Source: a virus (taxonomy: Duplodnaviria; Heunggongvirae; Uroviricota; Caudoviricetes). Taken from it: DNA of 11,833 nt. Positions 9,299-10,323 of this stretch are shown piece by piece. The DNA is taken from positions 1 through 11,833 of IMG/VR virus record IMGVR_UViG_2778261064_000021; one strand, written 5' to 3'. The translations under genes and the position numbers were made by a program. The notes below the pieces were generated by a model. The model searched no databases. It worked only from the letters and a program-made list of their open reading frames with translations, and was not told the DNA's origin. Position 1 is the stretch's first letter. Each line of letters starts with the position of its first letter.

Positions 9299-9380
9299 CG
9301 GGTCCTTTCCAGGATCTGAAACACCGGGGGTACGTGTACGCGCAATTCTTAACTGTTTATGAAAATTTTTCAGGAAAAAG
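9299..9380 (+). repeat. Left arm of an ~80-bp inverted repeat (about 90% identical to the reverse complement of 10243-10323); contains the cosN-like core of cos1
   Basis: Manual alignment: a 33-bp perfect block cgcgcaattcttaactgtttatgaaaatttttc plus flanking matches; mismatches clustered at 9333-9338. Confidence 0.8.
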
Positions 9381-9516
9381 CATGTCGGTACTTCTCGCGC
9401 ATAACTGTTTGTTTTTATTAAAATCAACCACCAGAAACATACGACATCATAAAGCCCAAAAATCCTGTTTTTTTGGCGTTTCATGTCGGAACTGGTTTTT
9501 GATAAGGAATTGATAG
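9299..9516 (+). other. cos1: lambda-like cohesive-end packaging site (cosN-like core plus cosB-like region) directly upstream of terS
   Basis: Collinear with the recalled lambda left end (..CGCGGGTTTTCGCTATTTATGAAAATTTTCCGG..CGTCATAACTTAATGTTTTTATTTAAAAT.. then Nu1); three ATGTCG-core repeats in direct/inverted/direct order (9383-9388, 9442-9447 inverted, 9484-9489), like lambda R3/R2/R1. Confidence 0.6.
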
Positions 9517-10101
9517 ATGAATGTTAATAAAAATAATCTTGCGAAGATTTTTGGCGTCGATCCGCGCACGATTGAACGATGGCAAACGCAAGGGCTTCCC
9601 CATGTATCTGGTGGGGGTAAAGGTGTGGAAGTGACTTTCGACTCTGCACAGGTGATCGAATGGTATGCACAGAGGGAGAAGGACATCGAAAACGAAAAAC
9701 TCCGCAGGGAGCTTGATGATTTACGTGCTGCTGGTGAATCAGATTTACAGCCAGGCACAACAGAGTACGAACGCTACCGTCTCACCAAAGCACAGGCGGA
9801 CGGGCAGGAACTGAAGAACGCCAGAGAGGCGGGGGAAGTTACAGATACTGAGTTCGTTCTCTATGCGCTTCGTGGTCTGGCGCGCCAGATTTCTTCGATC
9901 ATGGATAGTTTACCGCTCACAATGCAAAGGCAGTTCCCCGCGATGACTCCGGCAATGATCGAGGGCCTGAGGAAAGAAACAGCACGCGCCTGTAATGCGT
10001 GCGCTAAAACTGCCGATAACCTGCCCCGCATTCTGAAAGACTACCTGATGGAAACAACCGGAAACGTGCCGGAGAAATTACGGCAACAGAAAGGTGAGTG
10101 A
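9517..10101 (+). CDS. Terminase small subunit, phage lambda Nu1-like (possibly a satellite packaging-redirecting TerS)
   Basis: 194 aa; N-terminus MNVNKNNLAKIFGVDPRTIERWQTQGLPHVSGGGKGVEVTFDSAQVIEWYAQREKDIENEKLRRE closely parallels recalled lambda Nu1 (MEVNKKQLADIFGASIRTIQNWQEQGMPVLRGGGKGNEVLYDSAAVIKWYAERDAEIENEKLRRE); AAGGA Shine-Dalgarno 8 nt upstream. Confidence 0.88.
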   Translation: MNVNKNNLAKIFGVDPRTIERWQTQGLPHVSGGGKGVEVTFDSAQVIEWYAQREKDIENEKLRRELDDLRAAGESDLQPGTTEYERYRLTKAQADGQELKNAREAGEVTDTEFVLYALRGLARQISSIMDSLPLTMQRQFPAMTPAMIEGLRKETARACNACAKTADNLPRILKDYLMETTGNVPEKLRQQKGE

Positions 10102-10128
10102 CAACCGCGCAATTATTGAACAAAACTG

Positions 10129-10191
10129 AGAAAGGATCTGATAACGTCATTTTTGGCCCAAAATGACCACTGTCAGATCCTTTCTTTTTTT
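10129..10191 (+). terminator. Long hairpin plus T-run after terS (rho-independent terminator on + strand); on the minus strand it corresponds to the lambda cosB hairpin region of cos2
   Basis: 13-bp outer stem agaaaggatctga/tcagatcctttct with inner pairing gtcatttt/aaaatgac, then a T-run; homologous in position to lambda GAAAGGAAACGACAGG...CTGTCGTTTCCTTTC. Confidence 0.7.
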
Positions 10192-10242
10192 GATGATTTT
10201 ACCATTAAACAATGAGTTACAGAGAAGAAGAACGGATCTGAC

Positions 10243-10323
10243 TTTTCCCGAAAAATTTTCATAAACAGTTAAGAATTGCGCGTATGGCTACCCCCGGTGT
10301 TTCATTTTCCAGGAAGGACCCGC
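10243..10323 (-). repeat. Right arm of the ~80-bp inverted repeat (partner of 9299-9380); contains the cosN-like core of cos2
   Basis: Reverse complement matches 9299-9380 with a 33-bp perfect block; mismatches clustered at 10283-10288. Confidence 0.8.

Follow-up and report, generated by a model that had tools for sequence, protein, structure and literature searches.

Two opposed lambda-type cos sites around a Nu1-type small terminase gene in an EcCICFT073-family chromosomal island of Escherichia coli

Why should a phage satellite keep two packaging sites that face each other across a single small terminase gene? This question is raised by a stretch of 11,833 nucleotides (positions 1 to 11,833 of IMG/VR record IMGVR_UViG_2778261064_000021; hereafter the window), which is a phage-inducible chromosomal island (PICI) of Escherichia coli from the Gram-negative EcCICFT073 family and is integrated beside hpt. 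In this island, two complete lambda-type cos sites of opposite orientation, cos1 and cos2, enclose terS, a gene encoding a Nu1-family small terminase (TerS). An earlier examination of the DNA letters alone, here called the sequence-only reading, had suggested three meanings for this arrangement: packaging that can start in either direction, packaging by helpers of two specificities, or a scar of recombination. From these, the proposal of two helper specificities is retained, since the R boxes of the two sites differ and each set fits a real lambdoid prophage lineage, and the other two are not favoured. Dual-specificity packaging, in which cos1 and cos2 would be two alternative initiation sites recognized by terminases of different specificity, is assigned a probability of about 0.6.

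Two cos sites and the terminase between them

The plus strand of cos1 and the minus strand of cos2 were aligned with the cos regions of lambda, phage 21, Gifsy-1, SerU-LTIIb and several prophages, and sub-sites were assigned by mapping onto the features annotated in the phage 21 record M81255.1 (Table 1). Both sites align sub-site for sub-site with the cos of lambda, 21, Gifsy-1 and SerU-LTIIb, so that the similarity to lambda cos claimed in the sequence-only reading is reproduced by a real alignment. Each site contains cosQ upstream of cosN at a spacing within 1-2 nt of that in lambda, an I2 box (TTATGAAAATTTTT in both) between cosN and R3, and a cosB with the order R3-I1-R2-R1 in which R2 is inverted. 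cos1 ends at the ATG of terS. cos2 lies on the opposite strand, where it spans the equivalent of the phage leader and runs up to the 3' end of the same gene, and it has no terminase gene of its own. The head-to-head layout around a single Nu1-like gene is therefore as it had first been described.

A repeat search of the window returned the two sites as inverted arms of 116 nt (9299-9414 and 10207-10322) that are 78% complementary. For 9299-9380 and the reverse complement of 10243-10323, an identity of about 90% had been given; the similarity is real, but the global alignment has 71 identical columns out of 84 (84.5%). The perfect block of 33 nt that had been noted is present at 9339 on the plus strand and 10282 on the minus strand, and is nested in a longer exact block of 35 nt (TACGCGCAATTCTTAACTGTTTATGAAAATTTTTC) starting at 9337. 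The chance expectation of exact inverted 35-mers in 11.8 kb is about 6e-14. An assembly artefact, against which the sequence-only reading had cautioned, is excluded by the occurrence of the module at 99% identity in several independent complete E. coli genomes, and it is also present in 49 IMG/VR loci; an explanation of the second copy by artefact or chance similarity retains practically no probability.

Despite their common anatomy, the two sites differ in their R boxes. Those of cos1 have the 21-type core CATGTCGG/CGACAT. As in phage 21, this core is carried by R3, R2 and R1, and I2 and I1 are conserved as well; unlike these elements, the cosN flanks and the cohesive-end sequence differ from those of phage 21, with 25/47 identity in the cosN region. 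The R boxes of cos2 are of the Gifsy-1/SerU type (CAGATCC), namely CAGATCCGTTCT in R3, AGAAAGGATCTG in R2 and CAGATCCTTTCT in R1, and the inverted repeats formed by R2 with R1 and with R3 were picked up independently by the repeat search. These boxes and their layout are shared with the cos of prophages of the Gifsy-1, SerU-LTIIb and RM9088 type, and those of SerU and RM9088 also have the unusual cosN flanks ACCGGGGG...ACGCGCAA. In these phages, however, the site precedes the Nu1 and gpA genes, whereas cos2 has the reverse orientation and adjoins the 3' end of a terS that encodes a DNA-binding domain of another specificity. The cosQ variant of cos2, CGGGTCCTTCCT, recurs in the related island loci L007-L009.

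The cosN of both sites is not of the lambda type and differs from lambda cosN at most positions. With slashes at the nick positions inferred from the alignment, lambda cosN reads GTTACG/GGGCGGCGACCT/CGCGG, cos1 ACACCGGG/GGTACGTGTACG/CGCAA and cos2 ACACCGGG/GGTAGCCATACG/CGCAA; the predicted 12-mers of cos1 and cos2 differ at 5/12 positions. The same non-lambda type, in which the conserved flanks ACCGGGGG...ACGCGCAA surround a hypervariable centre, is found in loci L011, L002, L093, L013 and L038, and examples of its centres are, besides GGTACGTGTACG and GGTAGCCATACG, GGTCATAGCACG, GGACGGCAGACG, GGTCTGGGGACG, GGTCTGTGGATG and GGTAGGCATACG. In contrast, the lambda-type GGGCGGCGACCT is almost invariant over dozens of loci. 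Due to the hypervariable centre, elements with the non-lambda cosN would have mutually incompatible cohesive ends.

Sub-sites are better conserved than the spacers between them, with 91% versus 55% identity for cos1 compared to the Stx2e prophage of strain cq9 (p=7e-10) and 84% versus 56% for cos2 compared to the RM9088 prophage (p=5e-6). This is the pattern that functional constraint would be expected to leave. The possibility that cos1 and the 5' portion of terS had recently been acquired as a whole from the Stx2e prophage of cq9 was considered and rejected, because identity reaches 98% only in the I2-R3 stretch and is 50-80% elsewhere.

Table 1. Packaging sites, genes and other features of the window. 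Coordinates are positions in the window.
Feature	Coordinates	Strand	Basis
cos1, complete lambda-type cos pointing into terS	9299..9516	+	Alignments to lambda, 21 and prophage cos
cos1 cosQ, CGGGTCCTTTCC	9299..9310	+	12/12 identical to box annotated R4 in phage 21
cos1 predicted 12-nt cohesive-end segment, GGTACGTGTACG	9329..9340	+	Position inferred by alignment to lambda GGGCGGCGACCT
cos1 I2-like IHF box, TTATGAAAATTTTTCA	9357..9372	+	15/15 identical to annotated phage 21 I2
cos1 R3, 21-type, AAGCATGTCGGTACTT	9378..9393	+	14/16 versus annotated phage 21 R3; identical in cq9 Stx2e prophage
cos1 I1-like IHF box	9400..9414	+	13/15 identical to annotated phage 21 I1
cos1 R2, inverted, contains CGACAT	9435..9451	+	Mapping onto phage 21 sub-sites
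cos1 R1, TTTCATGTCGGAACTG (also written TTTCATGTCGG)	9479..9494	+	13/16 identical to annotated phage 21 R1
terS, full-length Nu1-family small terminase, 194 aa	9517..10101	+	PF07471, E=4e-68, profile positions 1-162 of 164
cos2, second complete lambda-type cos, running up to terS 3' end	10107..10322	-	Alignments; phage 21 sub-site mapping
cos2 cosQ, CGGGTCCTTCCT	10311..10322	-	10/12 identical to phage 21
cos2 predicted 12-nt cohesive-end segment, GGTAGCCATACG	10281..10292	-	Position inferred from alignment
cos2 I2-like box	10249..10264	-	14/15 identical to phage 21 I2
cos2 R3, Gifsy-1/SerU-LTIIb type, AGTCAGATCCGTTCTT	10228..10243	-	Alignments
cos2 I1-like box	10207..10221	-	Phage 21 sub-site mapping
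cos2 R2, inverted, AGAAAGGATCTGACAG	10170..10186	-	Forms inverted repeats with R1 and R3
cos2 R1, TATCAGATCCTTTCTC	10128..10143	-	Phage 21 sub-site mapping
Tyrosine integrase, island left end	1..1227	+	Pfam Arm-DNA-bind_3, Phage_int_M, Phage_integrase
AlpA-family regulator	2344..2670	+	Pfam PF05930, E=6e-12
D5_N/Pox_D5 primase-helicase, island replication gene	4274..6079	+	Pfam
Single-strand DNA-binding protein (SSB)	6610..7032	+	Pfam PF00436
Lambda gpE-like major capsid protein, counterpart of EcCICFT073 c1499	7497..8552	+	PF03864, E=4e-49
Lambda gpD-like head decoration protein, counterpart of EcCICFT073 c1500	8565..8900	+	PF02924
Conserved hypothetical protein, final gene ahead of cos1	8860..9264	+	phrog_1999; gene order shared with L006-L009
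Terminator-like hairpin GGCCGG-AGCAAT-CCGGCC followed by T10, abuts cos1 cosQ	9271..9298	+	Read from sequence
Small conserved open reading frame just past cos2	10367..10651	+	phrog_1561, match begins at residue 11 of the 104-aa open reading frame

The TerS encoded between the sites aligns to Nu1 in its N-terminal winged helix-turn-helix, its central self-association region and its C-terminal region. Over almost its whole length, it is 60% identical to gp1 of phage 21 and 52% identical to lambda Nu1; the nearest phage TerS is 70% identical. In a PDB search, it matched lambda TerS (6hn7_B, 1.5e-38) and did not match RppC, in contrast to a 144-aa protein of locus L009, which matches RppC at 4e-32. 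An assignment to the Rpp proteins, which have 139-154 aa and no C-terminal region for binding the large terminase (TerL), was rejected because the island protein is longer and aligns to Nu1 along its entire length. Its recognition helix, VDPRTIERWQ, is identical to that of 21 gp1 and of the TerS from the cq9 Stx2e prophage; the respective helices are ASIRTIQNWQ in lambda and CDVRT(I/V)T(G/A)WQ in phages with Gifsy/SerU-type cosB. Island TerS therefore fits cos1 and not cos2. The R boxes of cos2 would need a TerS DNA-binding domain that is absent from the island, and no island protein should read them.

The C-terminus of island TerS, NLPRILKDYL (LPxxLxxYL), belongs to the class of lambda, PhiR5_1 and PhiR12 and not to the 21 class (NVGGWIDDF), and its 15-aa tail is found in island proteins only. 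Thus, island TerS and 21 gp1 are alike in the recognition helix and differ in the C-terminal TerL-binding part. In addition, no terL open reading frame was found within the window, whereas in phage 21 terL follows terS. Island TerS resembles the lambda-21 hybrid TerS of Murialdo and Feiss, in which the DNA-binding domain of 21 is combined with the TerL-binding half of lambda (PMC9026076). Island TerS may pair with a lambda-class TerL, or it may join helper TerS in mixed oligomers, which is how Rpp acts.

The unusual cosN flanks are shared with two lambdoid prophage lineages, both of which have lambda-like head and terminase modules and whose TerL N-termini are nearly identical. The RM9088/SerU-LTIIb lineage combines a Gifsy-type cosB with a TerS helix to match, and the cq9 Stx2e prophage has a 21-type cosB in addition to the I2-R3 stretch mentioned above. 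Strain cq9 also holds an island module that is 99.1% identical to the window. Among 5426 complete E. coli genomes, the cos1-terS-cos2 module occurs in 24 and the RM9088-type cos with Nu1 in 38; both are present in 10 genomes versus 0.17 expected (P=1e-16).

Toxin genes are located directly upstream of the lysis and cos regions of these prophages, encoding Stx2e in L093 (cq9), the subtilase AB5 toxin in L011 (RM9088) and LT-IIb in L002 (SerU-LTIIb). As prophages that share the cosN of the island carry toxin genes, the candidate helpers are toxin-converting phages, and most of them come from isolates of pigs, cattle and food.

The cos pair in related islands

Contrary to the first impression that no satellite with this layout had been described, the two-cos architecture is already known. 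EcCICFT073 has a 'cos1' and a 'cos2' that have been described, cloned, and deleted singly and jointly (Fillol-Salom et al. 2018 ISME J, PMC6092414), and both sites were taken up again in the 2019 Mol Cell study (PMC6739421). When cloned in a plasmid, cos1 or cos2 of EcCICFT073 each permitted transfer by lambda and phi80; in the island, loss of cos1 lowered transfer and loss of both sites abolished it (PMC6092414). Neither of these helpers matches the cosB of EcCICFT073 cos2. By binding to the TerS of the helper, RppA diverts this protein to the cosB of cos1, which is the Rpp-dependent site, and in cosB swaps only the cosB of cos1 responded to Rpp (PMC6739421). Why some PICIs have two cos sites was posed as a question in the same paper (PMC6739421).

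With loci such as L009 and L022, which encode RppA and contain the published cos sequences, as proxies for the CFT073 genome, the published cos1 and cos2 sequences match the plus-strand and minus-strand sites that flank rppA in L009. The convergent layout is therefore the published one, even though the words 'inverted' or 'orientation' are used for cos2 in neither PMC6092414 nor PMC6739421. A literature search for subsequent studies of cos2, or of a Nu1-type TerS in islands of this kind, returned nothing beyond the papers of 2018 and 2019 and a commentary of 2022, which deals with PICI cos sites but is silent on cos2.

EcCICFT073 and the window have the same order of int, alpA, primase, SSB, gpE-like and gpD-like genes, a hypothetical gene, cos1, a specificity gene, inverted cos2 and a small open reading frame. 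They differ in the middle gene, which encodes Rpp, a protein of 144-153 aa, in EcCICFT073 and the full-length Nu1-type TerS of 194 aa in the window, in the cosB of cos1, which is an Rpp-specific CACCACCACC element in the former and of the 21 type with three R boxes in the latter, and in the cosN, which in the window is not of the lambda GGGCGGCGACCT type. Accordingly, it is the TerS-type gene, the variant cosN and the two phage-type cosB regions that are new here. More distant parallels are provided by TerS redirection in Staphylococcus aureus pathogenicity islands (SaPIs) and by the cos islands SaPIbov5 and SaPIbov4, in which a TerS of the satellite or a cos of the helper also leads to packaging by helper machinery, and two putative cos sites have been stated for SaPIbov4 (PMC6092414). 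However, SaPIs have unrelated sequences and Gram-positive hosts, SaPI TerS proteins belong to pac/headful systems, and the lambda-type cosQ-cosN-cosB anatomy is missing.

Whether related islands have one or two cos sites had been proposed as a check. A total of 80 IMG/VR loci with the island capsid protein and four genome loci were scanned for cosQ...I2 patterns. Among the 64 informative sources, the remaining loci being truncated, 54 including the window have the convergent pair, with a plus-strand site about 800 bp past the capsid gene and a minus-strand site 600-1020 bp further. The cosB type of cos1 co-varies perfectly with the intervening protein: cosB CACCACCACC is found with Rpp (136-165 aa), cosB GGTGGTGGTGG (also given as GGTGGTGG) with a TerS-like protein of 180/184 aa, and the 21-type cosB with the 194-aa Nu1-type TerS, the latter in the window and L006 only. 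The cosB of cos2 assorts independently and is of the 21, Gifsy/SerU, PhiR12 (CATGTCCGG), F (GGTTGTTGT) or other types. Judged by their alignments, three of these types (21, Gifsy/SerU and PhiR12) are demonstrably phage cos sites; the CATGTCCGG-type cos2, which is that of EcCICFT073, is 97% identical to the cos directly upstream of Nu1 in phage PhiR12_1.

The most common protein in the slot between cos1 and cos2 is the TerS-like protein of 180/184 aa, which is neither Rpp nor Nu1 (L007:10771-11313, L008 and about 35 IMG/VR loci). It has a novel N-terminal domain, its middle and C-terminus are Nu1-like (phrog_57), and the GGTGGTGGTGG-type cosB paired with it also resembles R3-I1-R2-R1. A PDB sequence search with the 180-aa protein of L007 gave no match, and the protein is not treated in PMC6092414 or PMC6739421.

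Several loci show rearrangements within the module. Between L078 and L089 (5700-6650 in each), a segment of about 600 bp between the cos cores is inverted in otherwise collinear islands, with flanks of 95-97% identity in the same orientation and an interior of 98% identity in reverse, and the same flip is present in L082 and L091. The inversion indicates that the inverted cos repeats recombine, or are cut and rejoined. In L055 (about 5930-6140), an open reading frame begins with the N-terminus of a PhiR12-type phage TerS (MATQTEVAR...) and continues with the C-terminal part of Rpp; it is a chimera in which the exchange of DNA between an island and the cos-terS region of a phage has left its trace. 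In some genomes (H257-H259, e.g. NZ_CP178694.1 1810465-1810998), cos1 and cos2 lie within 534 bp and are matched in two pieces with no terS annotated, and these places look like terS-deleted derivatives of the window module. The variant in the window suggests that Rpp evolved from an island TerS.

How the two sites might be used

According to the dual-specificity reading, cos1 would be used by terminases whose DNA-binding domain is of the 21 type, be it that of island TerS or of a Stx2e-type helper, and cos2 would serve helpers with a Gifsy/SerU-type TerS from the RM9088/SerU lineage. A helper of either specificity could cut and package island concatemers, rightwards from cos1 or leftwards from cos2. 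Island TerS could additionally divert to cos1 a helper TerL that is compatible with it, in the manner of SaPI TerS or Rpp. Termination of the lambda type requires that cosQ and then cosN are met in one direction (PMC9026076). Because termination is directional, the inverted orientation would keep either site from prematurely terminating packaging begun at the other and would allow two initiators to coexist. If the sites were in direct orientation, packaging from one could end at the other, which would yield DNA of non-unit length with non-complementary ends, given the 5 mismatched positions between the 12-mers of cos1 and cos2. That the island is cleaved at either of its sites, the identity of the helpers and the rationale of the inverted orientation are what we infer from these comparisons.

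Some observations do not sit easily with dual-specificity packaging. Prophages with the variant cosN have TerS C-termini and TerL N-termini of the 21 class while the C-terminus of island TerS is of the lambda class, and because of this mismatch it is not evident that island TerS could bind TerL from those prophages whose cos fits the sites of the island. The co-occurrence with RM9088-type cos falls to a P of about 2e-11 after obvious clones are collapsed, with phylogeny otherwise ignored, and some sub-site limits, including the cosN flanks, were set by eye. The F-type cosB (GGTTGTTGTTTAATTG) has no match in the phage collection by blastn. Finally, deletion of EcCICFT073 cos2 raised transfer by lambda and phi80 (PMC6092414), meaning that cos2 can be dispensable or even costly, and in 10 related loci the plus-strand site stands alone although the sequence continues for at least 1.2 kb beyond it.

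The last two points would also be explained if cos2 were a neutral or slightly harmful relic, i.e. a captured piece of helper cos that was left by recombination and hitch-hikes unused in packaging. The mosaic structure of the module, in which the 5' half of terS with cos1 and the 3' half with cos2 have different relatives, and the chimeric or terS-less loci (L055, H257-H259) point in the same direction. However, every sub-site of cos2 is intact and more conserved than the spacers, its position and orientation are kept in 54 loci although the cosB cassette has been swapped among at least five types, and in EcCICFT073 transfer is supported by the cloned cos2 and lost entirely only when both sites are deleted (PMC6092414), so that a relic is considered unlikely. 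Still less probable is bidirectional packaging, in which one terminase would use both sites and the same helper would package in either direction. It would agree with the near identity of cosQ, cosN flanks and I2 in both sites, including the exact block of 35 nt, and with the transfer obtained from both cloned EcCICFT073 sites with the same helpers (PMC6092414), but it conflicts with the systematic difference between R boxes (CATGTCGG versus CAGATCC) and between the matching TerS recognition helices, and also with the response of only the cos1 cosB to Rpp in the swaps (PMC6739421). The same low probability is given to cos2 being mainly directed against the helper, either as a decoy that titrates or misdirects helper terminase or as a homology patch for recombination with helper cos. 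In this regard, cos2 does copy a helper-type and not an island-specific cosB, PICIs of the EcCICFT073 family interfere with helper packaging (PMC6739421), and the segment between the cos sites is recombinationally active, as seen in L078/L089. Nevertheless, if helper terminase binds a complete cos on a replicating island concatemer, packaging would follow, which makes decoy and packaging site hard to separate, and an interference phenotype of cos2 is not reported in PMC6092414 or PMC6739421.

Dual-specificity packaging thus remains the preferred reading. An extension of it, which is proposed tentatively and at slightly less than even odds, is that cos2 is an exchangeable helper-matching cassette, i.e. 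an inverted copy of the complete cos of a local lambdoid phage that is swapped (among the 21, Gifsy/SerU, PhiR12 or other types) to track helpers, and that in each island of the family cos1 is read by the island's own specificity protein, be it Rpp, the 180-aa TerS-like protein or Nu1-type TerS; both sites of the window would then mimic cos sites of co-occurring prophages, and TerS would be a natural chimera of the 21 and lambda types. If this is true, a TerS-to-Rpp evolutionary series is present in one genomic slot. Since a true TerS occupies the slot of Rpp and the R boxes of both sites are of phage type, both cosB specificities can be read directly and each can be tied to a real prophage lineage. 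The variant offers a testable answer to the question of 2019 why some PICIs have two cos sites, and it bears on the co-spread of toxin-converting lambdoid phages (Stx2e, LT-IIb, subtilase) and satellites in E. coli from pigs, cattle and food.

Other features of the island

Membership of the window in the EcCICFT073 family is based on Pfam matches and gene order, with int, alpA and pri, unidirectional genes, a size of about 10-15 kb, gpE-like and gpD-like genes, and a cos1 located 5' of the packaging-specificity gene followed by a further cos2. In EcCICFT073, c1499 is the capsid protein (PMC6092414). Apart from the gpE-like, gpD-like and terS genes, no portal, protease or terL open reading frame is present in the window, and an assignment to capsid-forming PICIs (cf-PICIs) was therefore rejected. 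P4-like satellites are defined by the genes psu, sid and delta, and this class was set aside on that basis.

For the hairpin that abuts cos1, the structure predicted by RNAfold (-20.8 kcal/mol) has a longer stem, in which the T-run is additionally paired to the A-run on the upstream side, and the hairpin is absent from the output of a consensus terminator scan. Homologs of the small open reading frame past cos2 fill the same slot in L006-L009, i.e. across the island family, and in unrelated prophages they adjoin DUF1441-family or large-terminase genes, which hints at a packaging-associated role. The open reading frame that follows it at the right side of the window is the chromosomal hpt. Between this last island gene and hpt, there is a direct repeat of 62 nt (10674-10735 and 10814-10875; 71% identical, 140 bp apart), which may be related to the attachment site or may be a remnant of a former tandem element. 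In complete genomes, related islands with the same module are also found at other attachment sites, namely at tRNA-Pro near yejM and between cspD and clpS, and some portion of the island is matched in about 1990 of the 5426 genomes.

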